The translations under genes and the position numbers were made by a program. A stretch of 64,000 nucleotides of DNA, taken from positions 12,137 through 76,136 of the forward strand of contig JAZRGB010000023.1 of assembly GCA_045643965.1 (NCBI GenBank), given 5' to 3'. Below, in pieces: positions 470 through 52,489 of the stretch (positions are counted from its first letter, which is position 1; the number at the start of each line of letters is the position of its first letter). Under the pieces are notes generated by a model that was not told the origin of the DNA, did no database searches, and worked only from the letters and a program-made list of their open reading frames with translations. Origin of the DNA: Candidatus Enterousia sp. (GTDB taxonomy: Bacteria; Pseudomonadota; Alphaproteobacteria; Rs-D84).

Positions 470-530
470 ATTCTCTCTTAGGTAAAATTTTACCATATTT
501 TAAATCTATATAAAAGCGAAAAATGATAGA

Positions 531-605
531 AATTTAGAATGATTTAGATAAAAGCAAATCGAGAATCGTTGTCATGAATTGCTGACACAGCCCGTGTTTA
601 GCGAA
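531..605. repeat. Degenerate/partial copy of the palindromic hairpin element family (E1a)
   Basis: Type-I left terminal repeat aatttagaatgatttagataaaa, then the arm caaatcgagaatc shared with copies at 33.8 kb and 52.0 kb. The loop is truncated (gttgtcatgaattg) and the right arm is not complementary. Confidence 0.5.
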
Positions 606-712
606 GAAATTAAAGATAATGGTATAGATAAACGGGTTGGAAATGGCGTAGTGTACAAAAGTTACATGAGCCATCGCCAACCCGCTTTAGATATACCATT
701 AGATTTAATTTA
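606..712. repeat. Palindromic hairpin element, type-II termini (E1b)
   Basis: Left terminus gaaattaaagataatggtatagata, stem cgggttggaaatggc / gccatcgccaacccg, core GTAGTGTACAAAAGTTACATGA at 648-669, right terminus tatataccattagatttaattt. The right end overlaps the ftsK stop codon (tta at 710-712). Confidence 0.7.
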
Positions 713-2953
713 CAGGATGTGACGTTTGTTATTGGCGTCCGGTGCAGACACAATACCATCTGCTTCCATACGTTCCATAAATCCAGCAGCCTTGTTATAA
801 CCAATTTGTAATCTGCGTTGGATATATGAAATAGTTGGCTTTTTATCACGCAAAACACATTCTTTGGCACGTGCATACAGGTCACCATCTTTGTCACCAG
901 TACCACCAAAACCGCCACCCATCATATCACCACCACCAGATTCTGCAGAATCTGTAACACCTTCGGCATATTCTGGTTCACCCTGGGTACGCAAGAAATC
1001 ACCAATACGTTTTAGTTCTTTGTCATCAATAAATGCACCATGGATACGAACTGGGACACGCCCTGCTTCGCTGAACAACATATCACCCATTGCTAATAAT
1101 TGTTCTGCACCACCTTCGCCAAGACATGTTACACTGTCGATACGGCTACGTGCCTGGAACGAAATACGTGTTGGGAAGTTCGCTTTGATAACACCTGTAA
1201 TTGTTGTTGCGTCTGGACGCTGGGTCGCCATAACCAAGTGGATACCGGCTGCACGTGCCTTTTGTGCAATACGCTGAACACACGCTTCTACGTCTTTACG
1301 TGCCAAACTCATCAAGTCTGCAACCTCGTCAATAATGATTACCATATATGGCATATCTGACAAATCGACTTCTTGTGTTTCGAACAACAATTCGCCCGTT
1401 TCTTCATCAGTTCCAACAGCAACTTGCTTGGTAATCTTTTCGCCACTTTCACGTTTTTGTGCAGCGATTTCATTATAACTTTCGATATTACGTGCATTAA
1501 GAACTTGCAGTTGTTTATATCTTTCTTCCATTTCACGCACAGCCCATTTCAACGCATTAACTGCTGGTTCTGGTTCCAACTTTACAATTGGTGTAATCAA
1601 GTGTGGAATATCATCCCAGAACCCAAAGTCAACACCCTTTGGGTCGATAATAATCAGTTTACATTTATCAGGGGTAAAATGATAAACAATAGATGTAATA
1701 ATGGATTGAACAAATACAGACTTACCAGATCCAGTACGCCCTGCAACCAACATGTGTGGCATCTTGGCCAAATCGAAATACATTGGATTTCCACCAATAT
1801 CAACACCCAACGCCAATGGTATTTTATATTTAGATTCTATGAACAAATCATCTTCCATCAATCCACGATAACGCACAGTCTGACGCTTTAGATTTACCAT
1901 TTCAACACCGATTAATTGTGTCTTTGGAATATGTGCGATACGGATACTTTCTGTTGCCATTGCACGCGTCATATCTGTTACAGTTTTGCTGACATCTGCC
2001 ATACGCGTACCTTCATCTGGCATAAATTCAAACAATGTTACAATTGGTCCAGGTTTAATACCGACAACCTTGCCATGAACACCATATTGTGAAAACTTTA
2101 CTTCCATACTGCGGGCAATTTGTTTTAATTCTGGTGTCACTGAATATTTGCTAAAATTAGACTTTTCCAAGAATCTTGTATCTGGCAATTCGTATGTATT
2201 TGCACGTGCAACACGTGTTTTTACAGCCGCCACAGCAGCAGCTTTTTTTACACTACGCTTCTTTGGGGTGGCTACTTTTTCTTCTTCCGCTTCTTCTTGC
2301 TCTATTTCTTCCTCAACTTCATCTTCTTCATCTGAATCATCAGTTTGTGGCACATACTTTGTTAAATGGAACGCAGACGCCAACCATAATGCCCAACGTT
2401 TTAAAACCTTTAGTCCCCAACGAACATGTTCCCATTTTATGTGTAGTAACATTCCACCCATAATACAAAAAACAACCACACATAAAACACCAACCAACAC
2501 AGCACCAACCAAACCAATCAAATACACAACATCAGCTGATACCACCGCACCAAACATACCACCGTATGTTGAACGTGGTGCAATTAAACCAAATCCAATT
2601 ACCCCCATGCACAGTGTAATAAATCCACGCAATAAATTATATTCCGGCAGATTTTCATATTCCAACCCCAGTATTTGCACAATTCCCCATCGTGCAATAC
2701 ACAAAAACAAAAACAGCCCAGGTATTACACCAAATGCATAACGCACCATACCAACCAAATACCCCATCACAGATTGGTCACCAAATGTACTGGATACGCC
2801 AAAGCCATCTAAATAAGAATTATAAAACAGCATTGCAAACACAGCCCACAATGCAACACCCAAGACACATACGCCAAATACACGTTGTGCCAAACTTTTT
2901 AATGCACCAGACACACGTTCCGGTAAAAAATTAGACTTTCTTTTCCCTGCCAT
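710..2953 (-). CDS. ftsK: DNA translocase FtsK
   Basis: ORF 710..2995. N-terminal TM helices and an acidic linker are followed by a C-terminal FtsK/SpoIIIE ATPase domain (GRTGSGKSVFVQSIITSIVY, Walker A) and a gamma-domain-like tail. Start chosen at MAGKRKSN (2953); the upstream ATG at 2995 is also possible. Confidence 0.9.
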   Translation of the reverse strand: MAGKRKSNFLPERVSGALKSLAQRVFGVCVLGVALWAVFAMLFYNSYLDGFGVSSTFGDQSVMGYLVGMVRYAFGVIPGLFLFLCIARWGIVQILGLEYENLPEYNLLRGFITLCMGVIGFGLIAPRSTYGGMFGAVVSADVVYLIGLVGAVLVGVLCVVVFCIMGGMLLHIKWEHVRWGLKVLKRWALWLASAFHLTKYVPQTDDSDEEDEVEEEIEQEEAEEEKVATPKKRSVKKAAAVAAVKTRVARANTYELPDTRFLEKSNFSKYSVTPELKQIARSMEVKFSQYGVHGKVVGIKPGPIVTLFEFMPDEGTRMADVSKTVTDMTRAMATESIRIAHIPKTQLIGVEMVNLKRQTVRYRGLMEDDLFIESKYKIPLALGVDIGGNPMYFDLAKMPHMLVAGRTGSGKSVFVQSIITSIVYHFTPDKCKLIIIDPKGVDFGFWDDIPHLITPIVKLEPEPAVNALKWAVREMEERYKQLQVLNARNIESYNEIAAQKRESGEKITKQVAVGTDEETGELLFETQEVDLSDMPYMVIIIDEVADLMSLARKDVEACVQRIAQKARAAGIHLVMATQRPDATTITGVIKANFPTRISFQARSRIDSVTCLGEGGAEQLLAMGDMLFSEAGRVPVRIHGAFIDDKELKRIGDFLRTQGEPEYAEGVTDSAESGGGDMMGGGFGGTGDKDGDLYARAKECVLRDKKPTISYIQRRLQIGYNKAAGFMERMEADGIVSAPDANNKRHIL

Positions 2954-3022
2954 AACGCTGGTTATTTTATCATAAAAAACACAAAAAAAACACACGATTT
3001 TTACACCGTCTGAAATTTATAT

Positions 3023-3718: not shown

Positions 3719-5224
3719 TTATAAATCAATTAATCCATTATATATTTTCATATCCGTCAAAATCTTTACAGACACAGCCATTGATAACGCATCTTCATCT
3801 GTTCCACTGGCAAATGTTGGACAGCCCTGGCGAATATCTTTTGGATTAACATTTTTTTCTTTATTAAAATCACGTGCGTTAAAATCACCATTAATAACAT
3901 TTAAAAAGAAGGCATTTTGTTGCTGACTGGAACGAATATTAGACAAACATACAATTGGGAAAACACCACGTCCATCAATAACCTGTCCCTGACCTGATTT
4001 GACAGATTTGTTTAACAGTTCTAATGCACCACCATTGTTCAAATCAATAACAGTTGCGATTCTGGCACTGCCTGCTGTTGGCGTCCCAACCAACACACCA
4101 CGTTTTGTTTCATAAAAAGCAGACGCAATCGCTTCTGCAGTACCACGTGTTTGATCAGACATTAAAACCACAACTGGCATTTCAGTAATAGCTTTTGCAT
4201 TTGGCACAACTTCTACTTCATCCATTGCTGTTTCAACAATACGCATAACTGGAATTTCACCCATAAACAATCCTGCCAATTTTGCAGCCGCACGTTCATC
4301 ATCACCACTGGACGCACGCAAATCAAAAATAATACCTTCGGCATCTGTATATGTATTCAATGCCTTTTTCACAATATCAACTGCACCATCAGATACCTTG
4401 TGTACAATGATTTCCAGTATTCCACCATTGTCTGGATTTGAACGATGAACAATATCTGCATCTGCAACAATAACTGTCGCACGACGCAAGACAACATCTT
4501 TGCTGCCACGCGGTGACAATATTTTTATTTTTGATGTACCAGAATTAAATCCACTGATAACAGATGCCAATTCTGCATCAGACATATTACGTACCAATTT
4601 GCCATTGATTTGAACAATCAAATCCCCTGCACTGATACCAGCCGTATCTGCAGGTGCCCCTTTGAATACACCATCAACACGGAAATTACCACGTTCGTCA
4701 CGTACACCTTCCATACCAACACTAGTTAACAATCTGCCATCTTCGGTAATTTGTGCGGATTTAGAAAAAATATATCTGCCATTTTCATCCAAGCCACGCA
4801 TCATACCATCAACAACATATTGGTACATTTCGTTTTCTGACAGCGATTTCATATATGAATCATTTGCACGCATCTTTAAAATTAATGCTGTGGTAATTTC
4901 ACCGAATGCATTCCAATCGTTTTTATCTGGGCGTGGATAATTTGCAATAATCTTATCATCCCAAACCAATACAACCCGTTCATCCGTTGCAGCAATATGT
5001 GCAGATGGATTTAAATTTTCTAAACTTTCAATTGCAACATTCAGGCTTTTTCCACCCCACTTTACCCCGTTTAATTTTTCGTAAACGTCCGCAAAGTTTT
5101 TGGACATTTCAAATACAGGCAAACCATCTTGAATTTTTTCATCAGAAAAGAACAATCCGTCTGCAAAACACGGTGTCATACCAATGGCAAACGCCAACAT
5201 AAAAAATATTTTTGCTATTCTCAT
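3719..5224 (-). CDS. ctpA: Carboxy-terminal processing protease (S41 family)
   Basis: Signal peptide, PDZ region, then an S41 peptidase core (IIFDLRASSGDD... VVVLMSDQTRGTAEAIA). Confidence 0.85.
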   Translation of the reverse strand: MRIAKIFFMLAFAIGMTPCFADGLFFSDEKIQDGLPVFEMSKNFADVYEKLNGVKWGGKSLNVAIESLENLNPSAHIAATDERVVLVWDDKIIANYPRPDKNDWNAFGEITTALILKMRANDSYMKSLSENEMYQYVVDGMMRGLDENGRYIFSKSAQITEDGRLLTSVGMEGVRDERGNFRVDGVFKGAPADTAGISAGDLIVQINGKLVRNMSDAELASVISGFNSGTSKIKILSPRGSKDVVLRRATVIVADADIVHRSNPDNGGILEIIVHKVSDGAVDIVKKALNTYTDAEGIIFDLRASSGDDERAAAKLAGLFMGEIPVMRIVETAMDEVEVVPNAKAITEMPVVVLMSDQTRGTAEAIASAFYETKRGVLVGTPTAGSARIATVIDLNNGGALELLNKSVKSGQGQVIDGRGVFPIVCLSNIRSSQQQNAFFLNVINGDFNARDFNKEKNVNPKDIRQGCPTFASGTDEDALSMAVSVKILTDMKIYNGLIDL

Positions 5225-5253
5225 ATTACACCCCCCATTGGTATGACATACTA

Positions 5254-6117
5254 TTAATTATCTGTATCACGCAAATTAAAGTTATACAAAATCATATTAG
5301 ATATAAAGATACTTGTAAATGTTCCCATAACGACCGAGAAGCCCATTGCAATCGCAAATTCACGCAACATCGCCCCACCGAACAAATACAAACCAACCAT
5401 TGCCAACATTGTTGAAATACTGGTCAACATTGTACGTCTGAACATTTCACCAACAGACAAATCAATCAAATCTGCCATTGGCATTTTGTGATATTTCTTT
5501 ACATTTTCATCAATACGGTCATAGTTAACAACCTTGTCATTAATAGAATAACCTATACCAGTCAGGATAATTGCAATTGCCGTCTGATTAAATTCCAAAC
5601 CTGTGATTGAATAAAAACCAAACATCAATACAAAGTCCAAGAACAACGAACAAAATGCACCAACTGCATACCCACCTTTGTATCGAATCCAAACGTAAAC
5701 AGCCATCATAATAAAGGCAAACAATATCGCCAAAATACCACCACGAATCAATTCACCACCAATTTTTGGTCCAACAATTTGAACTTGTGAATATTCAACG
5801 TTATTACCCAAAATATTTTTTATTTCGGACACACGTTCATTTTGTTGTGCTTCTGTTGACCCTTTTGGTAATCCCAAACGAATTAATATCGCCTTGCCAT
5901 CAACCTGTTGCAATTCAGGACTAAATTCAGATAATGCGGCACGCATTTTATCAATTGTATAAGACTGTTCAACTGGTGTTACTTCCATTGAAATACCACC
6001 TGCAAAGTCAATACCATAATTCAGTCCACGGAACAACAGCGACAATATCGACAACAAAACCAACGCACCAGAAACGATGTACGCAATTTTACGATATTTC
6101 ATTATATGTAATTTCAT
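5254..6117 (-). CDS. secF: Protein translocase subunit SecF
   Basis: SecD/SecF family membrane protein. It follows secD, the canonical yajC-secD-secF order. Confidence 0.85.
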   Translation of the reverse strand: MKLHIMKYRKIAYIVSGALVLLSILSLLFRGLNYGIDFAGGISMEVTPVEQSYTIDKMRAALSEFSPELQQVDGKAILIRLGLPKGSTEAQQNERVSEIKNILGNNVEYSQVQIVGPKIGGELIRGGILAILFAFIMMAVYVWIRYKGGYAVGAFCSLFLDFVLMFGFYSITGLEFNQTAIAIILTGIGYSINDKVVNYDRIDENVKKYHKMPMADLIDLSVGEMFRRTMLTSISTMLAMVGLYLFGGAMLREFAIAMGFSVVMGTFTSIFISNMILYNFNLRDTDN

Positions 6118-14433: not shown

Positions 14434-15171
14434 ATGCGTAAATTTTTATCCGTATTTTTTGTCAGTGCTTTTATCGCCCTGCCCGTATCATCATATGCAA
14501 ATGTATTGGAACACGATACATCTGATCCACTATATTTACTAAACACCGAAGAATTGTTAAGTCAAACATCTGTATCCTACTGGAATCACATGTTACGTAT
14601 CGGTCAAGGCATATCTTATGGTATGAATCAACGTTTATCAATTGGTGCAAACGTTCATTACCAACACCACTTTAACGGTGACATGGATGGATTTTCTGCT
14701 ATTGATTTGGGGGCAACATATCGTATGACACGTGCAACAGACACAGAATCACGTGTTATATCCGACCTGATATTTGGGTTTAAATTCGGCGGCAGTTCTC
14801 ATGCCCGCACACCATATTATGCAGATTCTACATACTATGCAGGTCTGCGATTTGGACGTCAATGGGCCGGCATGACATTGGCAGCAACAATCAAATCCAG
14901 TTGGGTCTTTGATGATGAACGTGGAATGTCATTTATTGACTTTATACCCGAAGCATATTTCAGAATTGCACCAGATTGGCGTATTGGCGGTGGCTTTACA
15001 ATTCGCAAGGCAACAAACCGTGATCCAGTCACAGGTGACGATTATGACCAAGAATGGCTGAACACAAAACTGGTCCGTCAATTTGGCCGCACACAATACA
15101 TTGGTCATATCGACTATGAATTCGAAAGCGATGAAATTCAATTCGGCGGAAAGTTGAATATTGTATTTTAA
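14434..15171 (+). CDS. Outer-membrane beta-barrel protein (hypothetical, OmpA/OmpW-like size)
   Basis: Signal peptide MRKFLSVFFVSAFIALPVSSYA and C-terminal …LNIVF. Confidence 0.5.
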   Translation: MRKFLSVFFVSAFIALPVSSYANVLEHDTSDPLYLLNTEELLSQTSVSYWNHMLRIGQGISYGMNQRLSIGANVHYQHHFNGDMDGFSAIDLGATYRMTRATDTESRVISDLIFGFKFGGSSHARTPYYADSTYYAGLRFGRQWAGMTLAATIKSSWVFDDERGMSFIDFIPEAYFRIAPDWRIGGGFTIRKATNRDPVTGDDYDQEWLNTKLVRQFGRTQYIGHIDYEFESDEIQFGGKLNIVF

Positions 15172-15172
15172 T

Positions 15173-15206
15173 AAAAATCGGGAATTTTTATTCCCGATTT
15201 TTTTCT
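15173..15206. terminator. Bidirectional Rho-independent terminator
   Basis: aaaatcgggaatttttattcccgatttttt between the convergent OMP gene and trxB. Confidence 0.7.
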
Positions 15207-15213
15207 CTACAAA

Positions 15214-16113
15214 TTATGATAACTTATTCAAATAGGCAATTGCGTCCATACCAGCACTGCACCCAGTACCAACAGCGGTTGCAATCTGCATTTTCAAATC
15301 GCTGTGAACATCACCTGCAACGAACATACCTGCTGGCAATTCAGATGGTGCCAGTCGCCCCAGCCCATCACGTTTAATATCTTCTGATAAATAGTCTGTG
15401 TTTGCTTCGTGTCCGATTGCAACAAAAACACCATCCACAACCAATTGTTCACCCGTTGTTGTTGTGACAATCAGTTCACCATCTGTGGAATCTGTTTTTT
15501 CTTCGATTTTTTCTAAATCTGTATTAAACAAGCATTCAATATTTTCACGCTGTGCAACGCGTTCACGCAATATTGCTTCGGCACGGAAAAATTCAGATTT
15601 ACGATAAACAATTTTTACAGTCTTGGCCAAATCTGCCAAATACAACGCATCATTTAATGCACTGTTTCCGCCACCCATAACGATTACTGTTTTACCACTG
15701 TAAAAGAAACCATCGCATGTTGCACAATATGAAACGCCACGTCCCATCAATTCACGTGCACCTGCGATTTCCAGTTTACGTGGACTGGCACCTGTGGCAA
15801 CAATCACTGTTTTTCCAACATATTCTTTATTATTTGCGGTAACAACAAATTCATCATTTTCATTTTTCACAACACTTGTCGCACAAACAAATTCAACATT
15901 TGCACCAAATGATTCCGCCTGATTTTTCATAAATTCAGCCAATTCACTTCCACTGCCGGCCCAGCCTGGATAATTTTCCAATGTTGCGATACCTGCCATC
16001 TGGCCACCTAATCTGTCACCGCCCAAAACGATTGTTTTCTTATTTGCACGTGCCGCATACAATGCCGCAGTTAATCCCGCAGGCCCAGAACCTAAAATAA
16101 TTACATCATACAT
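15214..16113 (-). CDS. trxB: Thioredoxin-disulfide reductase
   Basis: MYDVIILGSGPAGLTAALYAARA (FAD GxGxxG), CATCDG redox-active site, second NAD(P) GGGNSA motif. Confidence 0.92.
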   Translation of the reverse strand: MYDVIILGSGPAGLTAALYAARANKKTIVLGGDRLGGQMAGIATLENYPGWAGSGSELAEFMKNQAESFGANVEFVCATSVVKNENDEFVVTANNKEYVGKTVIVATGASPRKLEIAGARELMGRGVSYCATCDGFFYSGKTVIVMGGGNSALNDALYLADLAKTVKIVYRKSEFFRAEAILRERVAQRENIECLFNTDLEKIEEKTDSTDGELIVTTTTGEQLVVDGVFVAIGHEANTDYLSEDIKRDGLGRLAPSELPAGMFVAGDVHSDLKMQIATAVGTGCSAGMDAIAYLNKLS

Positions 16114-28415: not shown

Positions 28416-28444
28416 AAAATCCCTTTTCAGGGATTTTTTATTTT
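28414..28444. terminator. Bidirectional Rho-independent terminator
   Basis: aaaaaatcccttttcagggattttttatttt between convergent glycosyltransferase genes. Confidence 0.75.
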
Positions 28445-29448
28445 ATAAACTCTTCTATTCTGCCTTTATATTTCTTTGCACGCCCATTACAAGACACATC
28501 ACACACACCGGATTTATATAATTCGTCCACAGATTTTCGTGCAACATTAATATCTTTTTCTTCTGATAACCCCCGCACCTTTTGCATCATAGTAATTACA
28601 AAAGGCCACAAGAATTCACGATTAAAATGCTTAAATTCCCCAGCAATCGCTTTTTCTTTATATAAATTATATGAATAAATCAAACCGTGCACCAATGACT
28701 TAATCATAAATAAATCCTTGGCAGAATTTAAAGACGAAGTCGCATTTGGCATATAAAAATACAATGGCAACCGTAACATAACGGTCTTTGGCCGTGCCAA
28801 TAATATCGATACCCACCAAGGAAAATCTTCGATAATAATTCCACGTATAAATGGTGTTTTTTTAACCAAATCTGCACGATACAACGCCAACACAGGATAA
28901 CAATGTTTTCTGGTTGGACGTTTTACATGCCATGTTCTATTTTTTTCTGTTGCATGAAAAATAACATTTTTCAAAGAATATATGCGTTCATTTCCATATT
29001 TCTTATTTTTATTTTCCGGCAAAACATCTGTAATATCGACCCCTTGTAACATTTTTTTTCGCAGTCTATTATGAAATTTTACATCATGATCAAACATCAC
29101 CATATCTGCATTTTTTTGTTTTGCAGCATTATATGTTAATTCCAGTGTTTGCAAATGAATAAAATCATCACTGTCCAAAAACAATATATAATCACCAGTC
29201 GCATGTTGTACACCAATATTTCTGGCATCAGATTGTCCACCATTTTCTTTATGTATTACAACAAAGCGTTTATCACGTTTTGCATATTCGTCGGCGATTT
29301 CACCAGATTTATCTGGACTGCCATCATCGACACAAATCGCCTGCCAGTCTGTAAAAGTCTGATTTAATACACAATCCAAACATCTTCGCAGATATTTTTC
29401 AACATTATATATTGGTATAATTATTGAAATCTTTGGATTTTTTTTCAT
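28438..29448 (-). CDS. Glycosyltransferase family 2 (paralog A)
   Basis: ISIIIPIYNVEKYLRRCLDCVLNQTFTDWQAICVDDGSPDKSGEIADEYAKRDKRFVVIHKENGGQSDARN, the GT2 GT-A signature. Its N-terminal 100 aa are nearly identical to the adjacent paralog. Confidence 0.85.
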   Translation of the reverse strand: MKKNPKISIIIPIYNVEKYLRRCLDCVLNQTFTDWQAICVDDGSPDKSGEIADEYAKRDKRFVVIHKENGGQSDARNIGVQHATGDYILFLDSDDFIHLQTLELTYNAAKQKNADMVMFDHDVKFHNRLRKKMLQGVDITDVLPENKNKKYGNERIYSLKNVIFHATEKNRTWHVKRPTRKHCYPVLALYRADLVKKTPFIRGIIIEDFPWWVSILLARPKTVMLRLPLYFYMPNATSSLNSAKDLFMIKSLVHGLIYSYNLYKEKAIAGEFKHFNREFLWPFVITMMQKVRGLSEEKDINVARKSVDELYKSGVCDVSCNGRAKKYKGRIEEFIK

Positions 29449-29453
29449 ATTTA

Positions 29454-30467
29454 TTATCCTATGAAATTCACTATATCATCACGCAATTGTTCTGCCCATT
29501 TATATGGTGGATTTGATAACGCACCGATTTTATGCATTTCTATAAAGCATTGACGTGCATCGGCTAACTCTTCATCAGAACGTATATATTTTAACTTACG
29601 AAACGCCCACTTAATAAAGAACCATTTAAAGTTCTTGTTCCATTGTTCCATTTGATAATCTGTGGAATTTTCTTTATATGCAGAATACGCATCAATTATA
29701 CCTGTGCACAAACTTTTCATTATACGCAACTGTTTTGCACTTAATACAATTCCACCAAAATTTGGAATATAAAAATACAATGGTAACGGTGCAATTGTAA
29801 CACGCGGATTGCGTAACATAACCCTGCTCCACCATGGGAAATCTTCGAATAAAATCCCCTTGATAAAAGGAATATCTGCAATCAATTCACGTTTATACAA
29901 ATTTTTCCAAACCTGACAATGTTTTATCAACCAATGACGTTTTGGATTAAATTTATTGTGCGTACGTTCTGTTGCATATTCATAAACATCATCTGTTACA
30001 CGTGTTTTAATTTTATTCAGATTATATCTTTTATGAATCGCACGTGGCACAACATTATCCGTATCCAACCCCAGTTTATGACGCACCATTAATTGCGGGC
30101 GATATATTCTATCATATGTAAAAGATACAATATCAGACCCGTCACGCAACGCCAATGAATACGCAATTTCTAATGTTTGTGGGTGAATAAAATCATCACT
30201 GTCTATATACAAAATATAATCACCGGTTGCATGCGGCATACCAGCATTACGTGCATCGGACAAACCACCGTTTTCTTTATGAATAACCACAAAACGTTTA
30301 TCTCGTTTTGCATATTCTTCGGCGATTTCACCAGATTTATCTGGACTGCCATCATCGACACATATCGCCTGCCAATCTGTAAAAGTCTGATTTAATACAC
30401 TATCCAAGCATCTCCTCAGATATTTTTCAACACCATACATTGGAATAATTATTGAAATTGCAGGCAT
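29454..30467 (-). CDS. Glycosyltransferase family 2 (paralog B)
   Basis: ISIIIPMYGVEKYLRRCLDSVLNQTFTDWQAICVDDGSPDKSGEIAEEYAKRDKRFVVIHKENGGLSDARN, with a diverged C-terminal half. Confidence 0.85.
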   Translation of the reverse strand: MPAISIIIPMYGVEKYLRRCLDSVLNQTFTDWQAICVDDGSPDKSGEIAEEYAKRDKRFVVIHKENGGLSDARNAGMPHATGDYILYIDSDDFIHPQTLEIAYSLALRDGSDIVSFTYDRIYRPQLMVRHKLGLDTDNVVPRAIHKRYNLNKIKTRVTDDVYEYATERTHNKFNPKRHWLIKHCQVWKNLYKRELIADIPFIKGILFEDFPWWSRVMLRNPRVTIAPLPLYFYIPNFGGIVLSAKQLRIMKSLCTGIIDAYSAYKENSTDYQMEQWNKNFKWFFIKWAFRKLKYIRSDEELADARQCFIEMHKIGALSNPPYKWAEQLRDDIVNFIG

Positions 30468-33784: not shown

Positions 33785-33820
33785 AGCCTATGTATTATAT
33801 CATAAAAAAACACTAACCAC

Positions 33821-33910
33821 AAATTCATGATTAGTGAAAAAAGAAATCGGAAATCGTAGTGTACTTAACGCTACATAAGACTCCCGATTTGTTTTTAGAT
33901 GAATTATTAG
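33821..33910. repeat. Palindromic hairpin element (E2), type-I termini, degenerate left end
   Basis: aaattcatgattagtgaaaa | arm gaaatcggaaatc | core GTAGTGTACTTAACGCTACAT (33856-33876) | arm ctcccgattt | ttagatgaattattag. Confidence 0.65.
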
Positions 33911-33917
33911 CCAATAA

Positions 33918-34026
33918 ATAAAATAAATTAGAATGATTTAGATAAAAAGAAATCGGAAATCGTAGTGTACTTAACGCTACATGAGATTTCCGATTTATTT
34001 TTAGATGAATTATTATAATTTATTTT
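33918..34026. repeat. Palindromic hairpin element (E3), type-I termini, complete
   Basis: aaataaattagaatgatttagataaaaa | stem aaaaagaaatcggaaatc / gagatttccgatttattttt (18 bp) | core 33962-33983 | ttagatgaattattataatttatttt. The secB stop codon and its last two codons lie inside the right terminus. Confidence 0.75.
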
Positions 34027-34520
34027 GCTTGTTTCTGGGCATACAACGCAGCAAAATCCACTGGCTGCATTGCAAATGTTGGGAACCCAGATTCAGATGT
34101 CAAACGTGTAATCAATGCACGTACTGCTGGGAACAACAATGTTGGAACATCAATCAACAATGTACGTTTCTTTGCTTCTTCATCTTTTTCTTCTTCCATT
34201 TGAACCAGACCTGAATAAGTTGATTCAATCAAGAATATCGATTTATCGCCATTTTCCAGTTTTGAATGAACCTTGGTAATCAAATCAACCATGAACAAGT
34301 TATTTTCTGCACCCTTGATTTGAATATCAATATTGATTTCTAATTTTGCCTGACCATTGTCATTTTTAAAGAACAATTCTGGAACATTTGGGCTTTCAAA
34401 AGAAATGTCTTTCAAGTACTGAGATATAATATTAAATTTTGCGATTATAATTTCTCCTTGTGATATTTGTGGCGACCTTAATGTCTGGACTTGCGTCCCT
34501 GTTCTATGATAATATAGCAT
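34020..34520 (-). CDS. secB: Protein-export chaperone SecB
   Basis: KFNIISQYLKDISFESPNVPELF... matches the SecB family. The acidic C-terminus ends ...ALYAQKQAK. The upstream ORF start may be over-extended. Confidence 0.85.
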   Translation of the reverse strand: MLYYHRTGTQVQTLRSPQISQGEIIIAKFNIISQYLKDISFESPNVPELFFKNDNGQAKLEINIDIQIKGAENNLFMVDLITKVHSKLENGDKSIFLIESTYSGLVQMEEEKDEEAKKRTLLIDVPTLLFPAVRALITRLTSESGFPTFAMQPVDFAALYAQKQAK

Positions 34521-36446: not shown

Positions 36447-37156
36447 CAGGATTTTATTCTACAATAATTTTCTATGATTTTATTTCTAAGATTTTCGTCT
36501 TTTACTTTTTGCTGGGTATATTTAAACATTTCTTGTTCTGTCTGTTTATCCATATTTTGCAACAGATGCAAAATTGTCCAAGACAGTCTGGCATCTATAT
36601 CATATTTTTCACGAAACAAAACCTGAAATTTTAACGCACGCGAAATTAGTGACGGTTCTTTATACAATGTTCCAATTTTATCGTTTACTATCAGATAATT
36701 TTCCAATTCTATTGTTTTATTTGATGTAAACGCATAAAACGGTGCAGCAGCAAAAATTTGCTGTGACCCGTTATGATAAAACAGAGAATTTACATTAAAA
36801 TCAAAATACTGACCAACTATTGCAGCAGGCCAATCAAATTCTTTATTAAAAATATCAACTTCTGGGAAATTTTTTAAACCTAACTTTATCCCACCAAAAG
36901 AATTTTCCTGTTTCCATAAAACATTTTGATTTTGTGATAAATCTGGTTTCTTTGACAATATTAAATCAATGTCTTTTGGGTCAAACTGTGTGTTTGTCAG
37001 TTCAGATAAAACAGCATCACGAACAAATCCGCCGACTGCAAAACATTCTGTACTTTTTGGCAAATTCAAATCATTAACAACACCGTCAACCAACGGGGCA
37101 ATTTTCTTGTCCGCCCGACGAATTACACTTTCAACATCTGCCAGATACCATCTCAT
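36443..37156 (-). CDS. Nucleotidyltransferase, CCA-adding/poly(A) polymerase head-domain family (short, 237 aa)
   Basis: Pol-beta-type NTase signature CFAVGGFVRDAVL...DIDLIL (GGxVRD...DxD). It lacks the usual about 150 aa C-terminal body of a canonical Cca. Confidence 0.55.
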   Translation of the reverse strand: MRWYLADVESVIRRADKKIAPLVDGVVNDLNLPKSTECFAVGGFVRDAVLSELTNTQFDPKDIDLILSKKPDLSQNQNVLWKQENSFGGIKLGLKNFPEVDIFNKEFDWPAAIVGQYFDFNVNSLFYHNGSQQIFAAAPFYAFTSNKTIELENYLIVNDKIGTLYKEPSLISRALKFQVLFREKYDIDARLSWTILHLLQNMDKQTEQEMFKYTQQKVKDENLRNKIIENYCRIKSC

Positions 37157-37177
37157 TACAAATCCAACGATTGATAT

Positions 37178-37287
37178 AAAAATAAATTAGAATGATTTAG
37201 ATGCGGAACGGTCCCGATGGTGTAGTGTACAAAAGTTACATGAGCCATCGGGACCGTCCACAGATGAATTATTATAATTTATTTTTA
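37178..37287. repeat. Palindromic hairpin element (E4), type-I termini
   Basis: aaaataaattagaatgatttagat | stem ggaacggtcccgatggt / gccatcgggaccgtcc | core GTAGTGTACAAAAGTTACATGA (37222-37243) | cagatgaattattataatttattttt. It abuts the yebC stop (cta 37288-90). Confidence 0.75.
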
Positions 37288-38004
37288 CTAGGCAGCGGCT
37301 GTGAACACCTTCTGCACATCATCATTTGCATCCAATGCATCAACCAATTTTTCCAGTTTTGCATATGCTTCGTCATCCAAATCCATTGGCATATTTGGCA
37401 ACCATGTCAGTTCTGCCTGTTCTGGTTCGCCCAAGATATCTGCCAAATATTTTTGTGCGGTTACAAAATCTTCTGGTTTTGTTGTGATGATAAAGCCTTC
37501 TTCGGATGTTTCTAGATTATCCGCATTTGCTTCCATAATAATTTCCATCATTTCATCTTCGGTTTTGCCGATTGATGCAGGATACATAATCTGACCTGCA
37601 CGTGTAAACATGAACACAACAGAACCTTCTTCGCCCATATTACCGCCATTTTTACCAAAGATATTACGAATTTCTGGCACAGTACGACGTGGATTGTCTG
37701 TCAATGCTTCAACAATAACAGGCACAGCACCTGGGCCATAACCTTCGTATCTAACTGCTTCGTAACTTTCTGTATTTGCACCAGACGCTTTTTCAATTGC
37801 ACGTTTGATATTATCGTTTGGCATTGAATTTTTGCGTGCTGTCAAAATAGCCAAGCGTAATCTTGGGTTATTATCTGGGTTTTTATCGCCCAACTTGGCA
37901 GCCATTGTGATTTCACGTGCCAATTTTGTAAACAAACCACTGCGTGCGGCATCGGCTGCACCTTTTTTATGTTGGATATTATGCCATTTACTGTGTCCAC
38001 TCAT
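37288..38004 (-). CDS. yebC: YebC/PmpR family transcriptional regulator
   Basis: MSGHSKWHNIQHKKGAADAARSGLFTKLAREI, the canonical YebC N-terminus. 238 aa. Confidence 0.9.
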   Translation of the reverse strand: MSGHSKWHNIQHKKGAADAARSGLFTKLAREITMAAKLGDKNPDNNPRLRLAILTARKNSMPNDNIKRAIEKASGANTESYEAVRYEGYGPGAVPVIVEALTDNPRRTVPEIRNIFGKNGGNMGEEGSVVFMFTRAGQIMYPASIGKTEDEMMEIIMEANADNLETSEEGFIITTKPEDFVTAQKYLADILGEPEQAELTWLPNMPMDLDDEAYAKLEKLVDALDANDDVQKVFTAAA

Positions 38005-41975: not shown

Positions 41976-42004
41976 AAAAAAATCCCCAAAACGGGGAATT
42001 TTTT
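41976..42004 (+). terminator. Rho-independent terminator of mnmE
   Basis: aaaaaatccccaaaacggggaatttttt. Confidence 0.8.
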
Positions 42005-42006
42005 AT

Positions 42007-42110
42007 AAAATTAAAGATAATGATATAGATACGAACAACCCCGAAACCGTAGTGTACAGAAGTTACATGAGGTTTCGGGGTTGTTTGTAGATATGCCATT
42101 AGATTTAATT
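42007..42110. repeat. Palindromic hairpin element (E5), type-II termini
   Basis: aaaattaaagataatgatatagat | stem acgaacaaccccgaaacc / ggtttcggggttgtttgt (18 bp) | core GTAGTGTACAGAAGTTACATGA (42049-42070) | agatatgccattagatttaatt. It abuts the fadD-like stop (tta 42111-13). Confidence 0.75.
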
Positions 42111-43691
42111 TTACTCGTGACGGTCTGGGTATTTGCCCTCAATCAAATTCTTGCGAACCTGATGATGTTTTACCTTTTGCGTACCGGTTAATGGCAAATC
42201 TTCGGTTGTCATTGCATAGTGTGTAACCCACTTGTAACTTGCAACCTTTTTATTTGCAGCAGCAATTTCCGCACCCAGCTGTTCTAATGTCACACCTTCT
42301 TCAACACTGAACACACCGTATGTAACAGTTTTATCTTTTACAACATGTTCAAATACTGCGACATTTTTTACACCTGGGATTGTGATAAACATGCCTTCCA
42401 GTTCGTCTGGATAAACATTTTTACCACTATCTAAAACGATAACCTGCTTTTTACGACCTGCAAAATGCAATTCGCCGTTTTTATCCATTGTAACCATGTC
42501 ACCTGTATTAAAGAATCCACGTTCATCAAAGATTTCTTTGTTGGCTTCTTCGTTGTTCAAGTAACCACCAAACACCTGATGACCACGCAACCACAGAACA
42601 CCAACGCCATCTTCGTTTTTATCACGAATTTCGCATTCATTGTTCAATGTTGGTGCACCGAACGCAAATGGGAAACGTTTCTTTGTTGGTTTGGAAATAC
42701 AGATTGGTCCAACTGTTTCTGTCAAACCATAGCCCTGAATAAATGTCAGCCCCAAACGTTCATAGAATGTTTCAACTTCTGGTTTTGTTGCAGCACCACC
42801 TGCAATCAACAGACGTGCACGACCACCAAACACATCCAGAATTGGTTTCTGAACCTTACGTACCAAGAAGCCAAGACCGATTTTGTTCAACACTTTACCA
42901 TACTTTAATACAAAAGATACCAATCCCCATTTCTTTTGTGCCTTTACATTATCGATGATTTTATTACGGAAAACTTCCCATAATCTTGGTACCGCAGGGA
43001 TAACTTGTGGACGGAATTTCTTAAAGTCAGCCATAATTTCTTTTGGATTGATTGTTGGCTGCAACAGAACGCCCGCACCATAATGCAGCGTTGCCAAGAT
43101 TTCAACTGCAAAACCAAACACATGATACATTGGCAAGAAACCATACAGATAATCCCCTGGTTTAATCCATTCTGCCATTGATTCCAAAGAATTTGTACAT
43201 TCAACAATATTAAAGTGTGTTAATGGCACAACCTTTGGCACACCGGTTGATCCAGATGTAAATGACATTGTTGCGATATCCAAAGATTCAACATTTGCAG
43301 GTTTTAATTCTGGTTTAACCTTGCCGTCTTTTTTGGTTATATCATAGAATTTAAATTTGCTGGTCTTGTACACAAAAGACTTTTCTGCACAAACCATATG
43401 ACAGTTTGTAGTTGATGTCATATTATCATATTCAAATGGAGTCAGATTTGTATCCAACAATAACACTGTTCCACCCAAATACCAAATTGCAAACATTGTA
43501 ATTGGAAATTCTGGGATATTGTGTGCCAAGATACCAACCACATCACCTTTTTTAACACCGGCTGCATCCAACGATGCGGCACGTGCCTTTACCAAGTTAA
43601 TGAAATCTTTGTATTTAACGCCCTCGCGAACCAGATATAAATTGTCTGGCCATGTTTGTGCTGTGCGTTCCAGTAACTGATACATATTCAT
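42111..43691 (-). CDS. Long-chain-fatty-acid--CoA ligase (AMP-binding enzyme family)
   Basis: AMP-binding motif MSFTSGSTGVPKVV, and …GYGLTET… / …NTGDM… family motifs. 526 aa. Confidence 0.8.
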   Translation of the reverse strand: MNMYQLLERTAQTWPDNLYLVREGVKYKDFINLVKARAASLDAAGVKKGDVVGILAHNIPEFPITMFAIWYLGGTVLLLDTNLTPFEYDNMTSTTNCHMVCAEKSFVYKTSKFKFYDITKKDGKVKPELKPANVESLDIATMSFTSGSTGVPKVVPLTHFNIVECTNSLESMAEWIKPGDYLYGFLPMYHVFGFAVEILATLHYGAGVLLQPTINPKEIMADFKKFRPQVIPAVPRLWEVFRNKIIDNVKAQKKWGLVSFVLKYGKVLNKIGLGFLVRKVQKPILDVFGGRARLLIAGGAATKPEVETFYERLGLTFIQGYGLTETVGPICISKPTKKRFPFAFGAPTLNNECEIRDKNEDGVGVLWLRGHQVFGGYLNNEEANKEIFDERGFFNTGDMVTMDKNGELHFAGRKKQVIVLDSGKNVYPDELEGMFITIPGVKNVAVFEHVVKDKTVTYGVFSVEEGVTLEQLGAEIAAANKKVASYKWVTHYAMTTEDLPLTGTQKVKHHQVRKNLIEGKYPDRHE

Positions 43692-51445: not shown

Positions 51446-51475
51446 ACACACCTGCCCTATTAACATAATCACAGA

Positions 51476-51504
51476 AAAACCGACCATAAAGGTCGGTTTA
51501 TGTT
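51476..51504 (+). terminator. Rho-independent terminator of the peptidase E gene
   Basis: aaaaaccgaccataaaggtcggtttatgttt. Confidence 0.7.
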
Positions 51505-51522
51505 TCTGGTGGGAGTGGCTGG
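51503..51522. repeat. 20-bp direct repeat copy of the tRNA-Tyr-like 3' end (tttctggtgggagtggctgg)
   Basis: Identical 20-mer at 51503-51522 and 51746-51765. The second copy is the 3' acceptor/T-stem end of the minus-strand tRNA-Tyr-like gene. This is an att-site-like duplication. Confidence 0.7.
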
Positions 51523-51715: not shown

Positions 51716-51746
51716 ACAAAAAACACCCCAAACGGGGTGTTTTTTA
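51716..51746 (-). terminator. Rho-independent terminator downstream of the tRNA genes (also functional-looking on the plus strand)
   Basis: aaaaaacaccccaaacggggtgttttttatt. Confidence 0.7.
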
Positions 51747-51749
51747 TTT

Positions 51750-51825
51750 CTGGTGGGAGTGGCTGGATTCGAACCAGCTCAGGCTTAAGCCAACAGATTT
51801 ACAGTCTGCCCCGGCTCTCCAACTC
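51750..51825 (-). tRNA. tRNA-Tyr(GTA)-like gene, 3' two-thirds canonical, 5' acceptor/D-arm region not canonical (possibly truncated or pseudo)
   Basis: The minus-strand sequence reads …gcaga CTGTAAA tctgt | tggcttaagcc (long variable arm) | gctgg TTCGAAT ccagc | cactccc A CCA. The anticodon GTA, class-II variable arm and T-arm are canonical. Only about 17 nt precede the anticodon stem, too few for an acceptor strand plus D-arm. The candidate 5' strand ggagttg pairs imperfectly with the 3' strand. Confidence 0.45.
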
Positions 51826-51999: not shown

Positions 52000-52107
52000 G
52001 AAATTAAAGATAATGATTTAGATAAAAACAAATCGGGAATCGTAGTGTACAAACGCTACATGAATTGACCGGTACTGCTTTTAGATAAATTATTATCGGC
52101 AATTTTT
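52000..52107. repeat. Palindromic hairpin element (E6), type-II left terminus, degenerate (non-complementary right arm)
   Basis: gaaattaaagataatgatttagataaaa | arm acaaatcgggaatc | core GTAGTGTACAAACGCTACATGAATTG (52042-52067) | accggtactg | cttttagataaattattatcggcaattttt. Confidence 0.6.
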
Positions 52108-52109
52108 TA

Positions 52110-52213
52110 GAAATAAATTAGAATAGTTTAGATAAAAGTAGTGCCGGCAATGTAGTGTACAGACGCTACATAAATTGCCGGCACCGCTTTTAGATAAATT
52201 ATTATAATTTATT
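52110..52213. repeat. Palindromic hairpin element (E7), type-I termini
   Basis: gaaataaattagaatagtttagataaaa | stem gtagtgccggcaat / attgccggcaccgc | core GTAGTGTACAGACGCTACATAAAT (52152-52175) | ttttagataaattattataatttatttt. It abuts the stop codon (tta 52214-16) of the small Cys-rich gene. Confidence 0.75.
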
Positions 52214-52489
52214 TTATTTGATTGGCGGGAAACAATCACCCCCACTCTCTGGACAACAGTTATATCCTAAATCACCCATGTTGGTATAAACTTCACCAAC
52301 ACAACAACCATTTTTATCTGGTGTTGTGCCATCAAGACATTTCAACGATGGACCAAATGAAAACATATCAATATTTGCATATACTAAAATACCAAACATT
52401 GCACCCAACACAAAAGAAACAACCAAGGAAACCCATGATGTTGTTTTACTTGTTTTTTTCATTGTTGATTTTTTTGTAACTTTTTTCAT
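52214..52489 (-). CDS. Small membrane-anchored protein with a C-terminal 7-Cys module (paralog of 52503..53060)
   Basis: A basic N-terminus plus TM helix (WVSLVVSFVLGAMFGILVYA), then CLDGTTPDKNGCCVGEVYTNMGDLGYNCCPESGGDCFPPIK. The motif is shared with the neighbouring gene. Confidence 0.6.
   Translation of the reverse strand: MKKVTKKSTMKKTSKTTSWVSLVVSFVLGAMFGILVYANIDMFSFGPSLKCLDGTTPDKNGCCVGEVYTNMGDLGYNCCPESGGDCFPPIK

Follow-up and report, generated by a model that had tools for sequence, protein, structure and literature searches.

Group IIC introns insert just after intrinsic terminators, and the miniature inverted-repeat transposable elements (MITEs) of the Correia/NEMIS and ERIC/IRU types (~100–150 bp) have terminal inverted repeats, form long RNA hairpins, are co-transcribed and can affect mRNA processing or stability. 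To our knowledge, single-strand transposition (IS200/IS605, TnpA-REP) provides the only known mechanisms that give a fork-tied orientation without target duplication. Here we analyze a palindromic hairpin element found in a 64,000-nt stretch of Candidatus Enterousia DNA (contig JAZRGB010000023.1, positions 12,137 to 76,136; hereafter the window), and compare it with these and other systems. Repetitive extragenic palindromes (REPs) lie mostly 3′ of open reading frames (ORFs), between unidirectional or convergent genes, and the Rickettsia palindromic elements (RPEs) are found in-frame inside ORFs, with a CGTC tag (PMC3733652). In a REPIN, the ends of a long hairpin are conserved, and compensatory changes keep its less conserved middle paired (PMC3116915). 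PMC12306157, citing Liang et al. (2015), places many E. coli REPs no more than 15 nt from a stop codon, where they stall ribosomes or affect translation. The lagging-strand template is where the IS200/IS605 and TnpA-REP enzymes act, and IS200/IS605 show a fork-linked orientation bias, insert without duplication beside a short sequence on one strand and depend on DNA hairpins (PMC6006769). We show that the Ca. Enterousia element abuts stop codons with a fixed orientation relative to both the gene and, as judged by GC skew, the replication strand, and that the sites it fills are depleted in other terminators.

The window (37.7% G+C, 93.8% coding, 4,058 non-coding bases) was searched with the core pattern GTAGTGTAC-N(4-7)-TACAT, and the completeness of its copies was scored by a covariance model of the element. 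An exact-pattern scan of one genome per species gave at least 119 loci with the element beyond the window, all in gut or rumen metagenome-assembled genomes (MAGs) labelled Candidatus Enterousia, uncultured Alphaproteobacteria or uncultured Rickettsiales. Among the matches listed, the element is confined to Ca. Enterousia and related gut Alphaproteobacteria MAGs. A relaxed core search of loci from other genomes (given L numbers below) yielded 198 copies in 139 sites (92 single copies, 39 doublets and 8 longer arrays), and 80 metagenome loci chosen by YebC served as a sample not picked by the element. Filled and empty orthologous sites were found by clustering the C-termini of all called genes, which produced many families in which the two states coexist, and in the 80 yebC loci. 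Two core-pattern matches fell inside ORFs (L001, L079), both without element arms.

Ca. Enterousia belongs to the order Rs-D84 and has reduced genomes of 0.75–1.0 Mb; the paper describing these genomes does not mention repeats (PMC12306168). Rfam contained no matching family at gathering thresholds, and the permissive matches were sub-threshold eukaryotic microRNA hairpin models only. Carriage by phages or other viruses was rejected, as the three matches in IMG/VR look like chance. The hairpin repeats are an undescribed family in an uncultured lineage.

The element is a palindrome of ~105–113 nt composed of terminal inverted repeats, a variable but self-complementary inner stem and a conserved core (GTAGTGTAC-N-TACATGA). 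The terminal inverted repeats (23 nt) come in two main subtypes, AAATAAATTAGAATGATTTAGAT/...AGATGAATTATTATAATTTATTT and AAATTAAAGATAATGGTATAGAT/...AGATATGCCATTAGATTTAATTT. The inner stem (14–18 bp) varies between copies with its self-complementarity kept, and the apex is conserved and bulges by 4 nt (ATGA) on its right. Compensatory changes were found at 29 of the 36 predicted pairs (104 copies), and the inner stems were 89% Watson-Crick across 76 distinct stems. When folded as single-stranded DNA, both strands form one long hairpin (−20 to −28 kcal/mol, z −7.7 to −11.8). The covariation fits a DNA-level and an RNA-level constraint equally.

The original prediction, made from the window, was that the hairpin loci abut or overlap the stops of minus-strand genes and that all copies share one orientation. 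Both parts are borne out: the position holds for 5/5 window loci, with the coordinates correct, and all seven window cores lie on the plus strand. Under random placement in the non-coding bases and random orientation, the chance of this pattern is ~0.08 per locus and ~4e-6 for 5/5. A wider survey of distance and orientation to stops had been proposed, and both rules hold in the 198 copies and 139 sites from other genomes. A gene reads into the right end at 114 of the 120 sites with enough right-side sequence, and at 101 of these 120 its stop lies 31–52 nt after the core, that is, at or inside the right repeat, within ~10 nt. The remaining sites, which have no abutting stop, are mostly internal array members. 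The mirror test on the left end gave no peak; on that side, 64 sites border a convergent gene and 60 a co-directional gene lying downstream. Mixed orientation was seen at only one of the 139 sites. The YebC-selected loci behaved alike: polarity was the same in 38/38 copies, and an ORF of at least 60 codons ended at the right terminus in 29 of the 31 copies that include it, the other two being cut by contig ends.

Raw locus GC skew is confounded by coding-strand composition, and the strand test was redone with the two components separated. On the window plus strand, minus-strand genes have a skew of −0.255 and plus-strand genes one of −0.011, which corresponds to a coding-strand component of ~0.12 and a strand-wide, presumably replicative, component of ~0.13. 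The minus strand is G-rich across the whole window, which places the window within one replichore. The abutted gene lies on the G-rich strand at 93/96 sites by raw skew, and at 62/65 sites (those with genes on both strands) once the coding component is removed; only ~62% of the other coding bases are on that same strand. The plus strand of the element is on the C-rich strand at 122/128 sites. Lagging-lagging spacers account for at most 4/128 sites and divergent ones for ~1. Convergent spacers offer two stops only tens of bases apart, and there the right end, never the left, touches the stop (64/64). Within the window, elements accompany 5/39 minus-strand and 0/21 plus-strand genes, a count that is not significant alone (p = 0.15). 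With the leading strand assigned by GC skew alone, the abutted genes are presumed to lie on the leading replication strand. This polarity relative to replication is new beyond the original observation.

The position of the element is largely explained by genome architecture; its double polarity is not. The precision relative to stops is accounted for, because native terminators are equally close to stops and a gene end has no dispensable bases other than the A-tract that precedes the terminator, or the terminator itself where an insert can take its place. On the same grounds it could be argued that insertion is random and non-functional, that purifying selection leaves only the copies after stops and that the AT-rich termini trivially make stops. 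The 93.8% coding density, a median empty convergent spacer of 42 nt and terminators 5 nt after stops leave a tiny neutral target, and any ORF entering an AT-rich repeat stops within a few codons. Such an account explains neither the restriction to the leading strand (62/65, with the right end on the stop in 64/64 convergent spacers) nor the loss of terminators at filled sites described below. The fixed orientation is also left unexplained: stops occur in each of the three frames of the left repeat (AAATAAATTAGAATGATTTAGAT) and in two frames of the right one, so stop donation cannot set the orientation. Random insertion is strongly disfavoured by the polarity data and we consider it improbable. 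Selection alone, one of the causes originally offered, is insufficient for the right end facing the stop in all 64 convergent spacers and for the G-rich strand in 62/65.

The five complete copies in the window (E1b, E3, E4, E5 and E7; 99–117 bits with the covariance model) and two of the three other copies contain the seven cores, at 648, 33856, 33962, 37222, 42049, 52042 and 52152. Eight copies had been counted; besides the five complete ones, E2 and E6 are partial and E1a is a remnant that lacks the core. E1b (606–712, plus strand; subtype AAATTAAAG.../...AGATTTAATTT; covariance model match 602–715, 102.8 bits) forms with its last bases the TAA stop (710–712) of the ftsK ORF (710–2995, minus strand). 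Elements are present at the ftsK ends (RHIL*) of orthologues from at least seven species, and across the eight species with this FtsK end the repeat and stem types differ. E1a (515–605, plus strand), which still shows a left repeat and a left inner arm, was identified through the direct-repeat families D6/D7 and alignment, having been missed by the core pattern and the covariance model.

E3 (33920–34026, plus strand, 98.6 bits) contains in its right terminal repeat the TAA stop (34020–34022) and the Lys codon (34023–34025) of secB (34020–34520, minus strand). The last two codons had been placed in this repeat together with the stop, which is right for Lys and only partly so for Ala, whose codon extends beyond it. 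This junction class recurs in 25 other sites, and the SecB tails differ among species. E2 (33816–33910, plus strand, 41 bits) is the gene-distal member of the two-copy E3-E2 array; its right repeat is truncated after TAGATGAATTATTA and its distal (left) repeat is replaced by a terminator-like hairpin (CACTAATCATGAATTTGTGGTTAGTG plus TTTTTTT; 33811–33836, minus strand), detected by the terminator scan at the far end of the array. Linkers related to CTAATCACG occur in arrays elsewhere (compare the hairpin at 33811–33836), and the array linker modules are CGCTAATCACG, CCCC..TTGC..GGGG and GGCAATTTTTTAG.

E4 (37177–37287, plus strand, 113.3 bits; DNA fold −27.8 kcal/mol, z = −9.0) lies between the yebC stop and the start, at 37156, of a 237-aa ORF. 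The yebC gene (37288–38004, minus strand) stops at a TAG (37288–37290), followed in-frame by a TAA (37285–37287) that is the end of E4. The last T of the terminal T-run is overlapped by a TAA stop both in E5 (42006–42113, plus strand, 116.5 bits; acyl-CoA ligase gene 42111–43691, minus strand, stop 42111–42113) and in E7 (52111–52216, plus strand, 114.2 bits; 91-aa Cys-rich ORF 52214–52489, minus strand, stop 52214–52216). Distal to E5, a native bidirectional intrinsic terminator is retained (41977–42004; repeat family D5, terminator scan), shared with the convergent mnmE. E6 (52001–52096, plus strand), the gene-distal member of its array, has a core and a truncated right repeat and falls below the covariance model threshold. 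Its left inner arm belongs to the AAATCGGGAATC type and its right inner arm to the ATTGCCGGCAC type; the two do not pair, and E6 is a recombinant between two element subtypes. In L021 the E6/E7 junction sequence recurs beside another gene. NCBIfam and Pfam confirm ftsK, secB, yebC, the acyl-CoA ligase gene and mnmE, and ARAGORN and Rfam found tRNA-Tyr and tRNA-Gly only. The neighbours beyond the elements are co-directional, as had been predicted, in the case of the MFS gene, the 237-aa ORF (22 nt after E4) and tRNA-Gly/Tyr; mnmE is convergent at E5.

To compare junctions, the 101 abutting stops were divided into classes: 42 are wholly inside the repeat, 24 overlap its last T(s), 26 are in the T-run extension and 10 are 4–9 nt away. 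The abutted genes end with TAA in 96 cases, TAG in 5 and TGA in 0, compared with 76% TAA in element-free genes (p = 3e-7). At ftsK, the acyl-CoA ligase gene and the 91-aa ORF, the TAA consists of a flanking TA and a terminal element base. A DDE-type MITE of the IS630/Tc1-mariner kind, like Correia in Neisseria, could in principle produce this by inserting at the TA of TAA/TAG stops, with TAA regrown from the duplicated TA and the first A of the element. The terminal inverted repeats, the ~110-bp size, the TA on both sides of E4, the stops at E1b, E5 and E7 (TA plus terminal A) and the TAA enrichment (95% vs. 76%) are all in keeping with it. A TA target, however, would impose neither orientation nor strand polarity, and 42% of the stops fall within the repeat, where the flanks are not TA. 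Across 64 single-copy sites, A is the gene-side flank (after the terminal T-run) in 81%, and the distal flank (before the A-run) is T in 30% and G in 47%, with no symmetric TA duplication. A Correia-like TA target-site duplication was rejected on this asymmetry, and we regard a TA-targeting MITE as a very improbable source of the junctions.

Empty orthologous sites already have the stop, and an intrinsic terminator (A-tract, GC hairpin, T-tract) begins a median of 5 nt later; the stop thus pre-exists insertion. In the empty orthologues of the E5 site (L011, L071), TAA is followed directly by the terminator. Exact breakpoints could not be fixed from filled and empty orthologues, the species being too diverged and the A/T runs ambiguous. 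In one gene family the C-termini track the element subtype, with NKL* for subtype 1, NKN* for subtype 2 and NKLS* for the element-free window gene 15214–16113, and C-terminal residues can be element-encoded. TAA/TTA targeting with donation of the stop, as first proposed, therefore survives in part. Stops inside the repeat (42/101), the prevalence of TAA (96/101) and C-termini that vary with subtype agree with it. The orthologous empty sites, a comparison also proposed at the outset, speak against it in that their stops pre-exist. There is also no TA or TAA duplication, and the left repeat would offer stops in every frame.

Terminator-like hairpins were found in 57 of 72 (79%) empty convergent spacers (median length 42 nt) vs. 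19 of 49 (39%) filled ones, counted outside the element (odds ratio 6, p = 9e-6). A terminator is kept after the element at E5 in the window and at L162, L166, L170, L174, L185 and L194; often, as at L037, L018, L051 and L025, there is no further terminator. The native stop-to-terminator spacers (TAAAAATAAAAT...) resemble the element termini. In many element-free relatives, heptamer runs (TTAGTGG/GTTAGTG)n fill the space between stop and terminator (immediately past the yebC stop in L139, L150, L151, L156, L133, L137, L140, L157 and L195). At 33811–33836, a heptamer-related hairpin (CACTAACCAC...GTGATTAGTG, followed by a T-run) closes off the E3-E2 array, and CGCTAATCACG linkers join array units elsewhere.

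A plain bidirectional terminator, AAAAAAATCGGGAAT-AAAA-ATTCCCGATTTTT (15172–15213, no strand assigned), lies between the convergent genes 14434–15171 (plus strand) and 15214–16113 (minus strand). Its stem (AAATCGGGAAT/ATTCCCGATTT) is identical to the commonest element inner stem, and the gene end at 15214, which has no element in the window, has a full element in twelve other species. This is the sole core-less occurrence of any inner-stem type in 1.86 Mb (the window and 202 loci, also used for the transposase search below), and probably represents an element decayed into an ordinary bidirectional terminator. The idea that inner stems are captured native terminators was rejected, the single core-less case being better read as a decayed element. 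Because native terminators start a median of 5 nt after stops, hairpins are found in 79% of empty vs. 39% of filled spacers, and one copy has apparently decayed in this way, a predicted role of the elements as 3′-end structures or terminators, the second option of the original prediction, is indirectly supported. In the consensus terminator scan the elements themselves were not called as terminators.

Among near-identical copy pairs (at least 95% identity over at least 100 nt), 26/30 are at non-orthologous gene ends, and one non-orthologous pair, 99% identical, comes from the same MAG (L025 and L080). Conversely, relatives with 96–97% identical YebC differ at the yebC stop in element subtype, have an array there or lack the element, and across the 80 yebC loci some stops are filled, some are empty and some have remnants, including deletion remnants that keep the distal arm only (L182, L196, L197). 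Near-identical copies at unrelated ends, together with subtype turnover at the same ends, point to frequent movement of sequence among slots, which would proceed via transposition, conversion or both. In L120–L124 and L018, with YebC 96–97% identical, gene order breaks just after the element at the yebC stop, which suggests that the repeats are rearrangement breakpoints. L018 (~5160–5270, yebC 3′ end) also has the sole clear copy with the core inverted and the arms standard; recombination between the arms can, to judge from this copy, flip the element centre. The rarity of core inversion suggests that the polarity is actively maintained.

The main rival to strand-specific insertion is recombination plus selection. 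There would be no dedicated transposition; ectopic recombination, gene conversion or template switching between copies or terminators, with the A- and T-tracts as microhomology, would spread the sequence, and replication-linked selection would keep the polarity. Possible objects of that selection are a need to expose the weaker-folding strand on the lagging-strand template, or a core that acts as a replichore-polar signal. The different subtypes at orthologous sites of close relatives, the mixed arms of E6, the hybrid outer/inner repeats that occur among copies and the likeness of native stop-to-terminator spacers (TAAAAATAAAAT...) to element termini are all expected if recombination is at work. 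The gene-sense strand folds worse in 105/107 copies, the near absence of core inversion (L018) suggests counter-selection, and no transposase was found in the 1.86 Mb sampled. Against this, the flanking homology is palindromic and so unable to set the orientation, gains at formerly empty sites clearly happen, and right-end-only contact with the stop is left unexplained. The stability gap between strands is moreover small with DNA parameters (−27 vs. −20 to −26 kcal/mol), the inner GC stem being equal on both. We consider recombination plus selection a possible, though rather unlikely, explanation.

The plus sense of the element out-folds the mRNA sense by 10.8 kcal/mol in 105/107 copies, with G·U pairs and tandem G·A loops on the plus sense. 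The plus strand could then encode a structured small or antisense RNA, or be an attC-like folded recombination site in a cassette-like or antisense system. The fixed orientation 3′ of ORFs, the conserved structure with variable sequence and the 4-nt bulge (ATGA) are reminiscent of attC. Inner-stem mismatches in 76 independent stems (G·T 36, A·C 49, other 49), however, reveal no strand-specific wobble. Because independent inner stems show no wobble bias, the fold asymmetry derives from the conserved repeats and core, not from the inner stems, and is inherited from their consensus. Selection at the RNA level, in the mRNA sense or the plus sense, was rejected on the lack of wobble bias, and mutational GC skew as the source of the wobble asymmetry was rejected since the expected direction is opposite. 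Promoter-like sites in the elements are not above background, which speaks against promoter donation as well as against an encoded RNA, and no Rfam family matches. The elements adjoin single-copy housekeeping genes separated by kilobases, and GTTRRRY is missing; no integrase was seen, and no search aimed at integrases was made. An RNA gene or an attC-like site is highly improbable.

From the anatomy, the position, both polarities, the lack of target-site duplication, the terminator depletion at filled sites and the recent copying between unrelated loci, all directly observed, we infer a single-strand insertion mechanism, an enzyme and an RNA-level function. Since only single-strand systems are known to give such polarity, we favour strand-specific insertion followed by retention as a terminator or 3′ hairpin. 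In this reading, which we put forward tentatively and slightly short of even confidence, a mobile REPIN/MITE-like element colonises the stop-to-terminator slot in a strand-specific manner and substitutes for the terminator. The copies would form a lineage-specific, recently mobile family of ~110-bp palindromes, and the slot would be the few A-rich bases between a TAA stop and the intrinsic terminator, in leading-strand genes only, with the same end facing the gene. The double polarity would arise from strand-specific insertion into the single-stranded lagging-strand template, 3′ of the T of the stop/A-tract; the TAA of a leading-strand gene would be exposed on that template in the sense in which the element sits 3′ of TAA. 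The gene-proximal terminus AAAATAAATTATAA (mRNA sense) would merge with or replace the stop and encode the last 1–4 residues in ~40% of sites. The long hairpin, with its A-rich/U-rich base, may serve as the 3′-end hairpin of the transcript (terminator or exonuclease barrier), and the original terminator would usually be lost after insertion. Purifying selection in a 93%-coding genome would then remove the copies outside the slot.

Several observations weigh against strand-specific insertion and the terminator role. A fixed target oligonucleotide could not be read at the junction beyond the T before the A-run (81% of sites), with the A-run ambiguous and the flank GC in ~10% of sites. A tblastn search for a Y1 transposase, with IS200, IS608 and E. 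coli RAYT queries, gave nothing below E = 0.04 in the 1.86 Mb, which cover just ~1–2% of each genome; the weak recurring matches lie antisense to an orthologous gene. The long terminal inverted repeats, absent from IS200/IS605, make the element unlike an IS200/IS605 derivative. The better-folding strand is the C-rich one, not that exposed on the lagging-strand template, and the inner stems, having no wobble bias, give no indication of RNA-level selection in the mRNA sense. The high turnover at orthologous sites could be explained by gene conversion among existing slots rather than by new insertion. A GC stem 24 bp from the U-tract is atypical for the predicted terminator, and GC skew is the only basis for the leading-strand assignment.

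A bolder proposal, stop-codon homing, is one that we consider unlikely. A single-stranded DNA hairpin at the fork would insert 3′ of TAA/A-tract on the lagging-strand template, hence at leading-strand ends only, donate a new stop and replace the terminator with a hairpin whose base the terminating ribosome melts. If true, it could couple upstream translation to transcriptional read-through, and the element would be a mobile element targeted by the gene end rather than by a DNA sequence family, possibly with an unrecognised enzyme.

The site choice and role of REPs, REPINs and MITEs are still debated, and the rules found here, over ~130 sites in many species, are unusually clean. They turn a loose association with gene 3′ ends into a testable question, that is, whether it is single-strand insertion at the fork or selection that produces the polarity. 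They also raise the question of whether a mobile hairpin can take over termination and alter C-termini in a 0.75–1.0 Mb genome. For annotation, it matters that the repeats encode part of the gene ends in these MAGs, coincide with synteny breaks and are likely points of assembly fragmentation.

Two other repeats were noted in the window. The 3′ end of tRNA-Tyr (…CTCCCACCA, minus strand) and its terminator are duplicated 244 nt downstream with 77% identity (51475–51522 vs. 51719–51766), which may be the remnant of an integration at the tRNA gene. The tandem paralogues 28438–29448 and 29454–30467 (336 and 337 aa) match each other at 84% identity over a stretch of 300 nt (repeat family D1).

Compared with known systems, the element resembles the REP/BIME/REPIN group in being extragenic and 3′ of ORFs (64 convergent and 60 unidirectional sites). 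Like the REPIN it is an inverted doublet with a compensated, less conserved middle, and both form mosaic tandem arrays. The REP signature, GT[AG]G placed 0–2 nt 5′ of the foot of a short GC-rich hairpin, differs from the element feet (AAAATAAA/TTTATTTT); the invariant GTAG of the element is at the apex of a 50-bp hairpin, before an AT-rich mini-stem of 4–5 bp (TGTA...TACA), and its termini are AT-rich 23-nt inverted repeats. Unlike in REPs, abutment of the stop is near universal (~84–95% of sites), often with overlap, the element keeps a single orientation to the gene and to the replication strand alike, and no RAYT was found in the sampled DNA (1.86 Mb). RPEs differ in that the present element lies at ORF ends, contributes at most the last 1–4 codons and has no CGTC tag.

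The size, terminal inverted repeats and long hairpin are shared with the Correia/NEMIS and ERIC/IRU MITEs. In contrast to Correia-type MITEs, the element has no TA duplication, has a strict orientation and strand polarity, and sits on the stop rather than anywhere intergenic. With IS200/IS605 it shares a fork-linked orientation (62/65 and 122/128, by skew) and the lack of duplication. Those elements, however, have two distinct subterminal hairpins and no long inverted repeats, whereas here the ends are 23-nt inverted repeats that pair together; they also encode or depend on a Y1 HUH transposase and a fixed tetra- or pentanucleotide target, neither of which was found for the element in the sampled DNA.

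The attC sites (e.g., the Vibrio cholerae repeats) are likewise imperfect palindromes (60–140 bp) 3′ of an ORF, sometimes holding the stop, in one orientation; their ends are conserved, their paired middle varies, some bases are extrahelical and folding depends on the strand. The element lacks their GTTRRRY core sites (R''-L''...L'-R') and cassette array, its junctions are A/T runs, and its neighbours are core housekeeping genes (ftsK, secB, yebC, acyl-CoA ligase) kilobases apart; its centre is conserved, whereas the centre of attC is the most variable part. Finally, intrinsic bidirectional terminators share the slot of the element and its overall plan, in which an A-tract, a hairpin and a T-tract come straight after the stop. 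The element differs from them in its ~50-bp hairpin, in which 24 bp of AT-rich stem separate the GC stem from the U-tract, and in being repeated and mobile, with a conserved loop.

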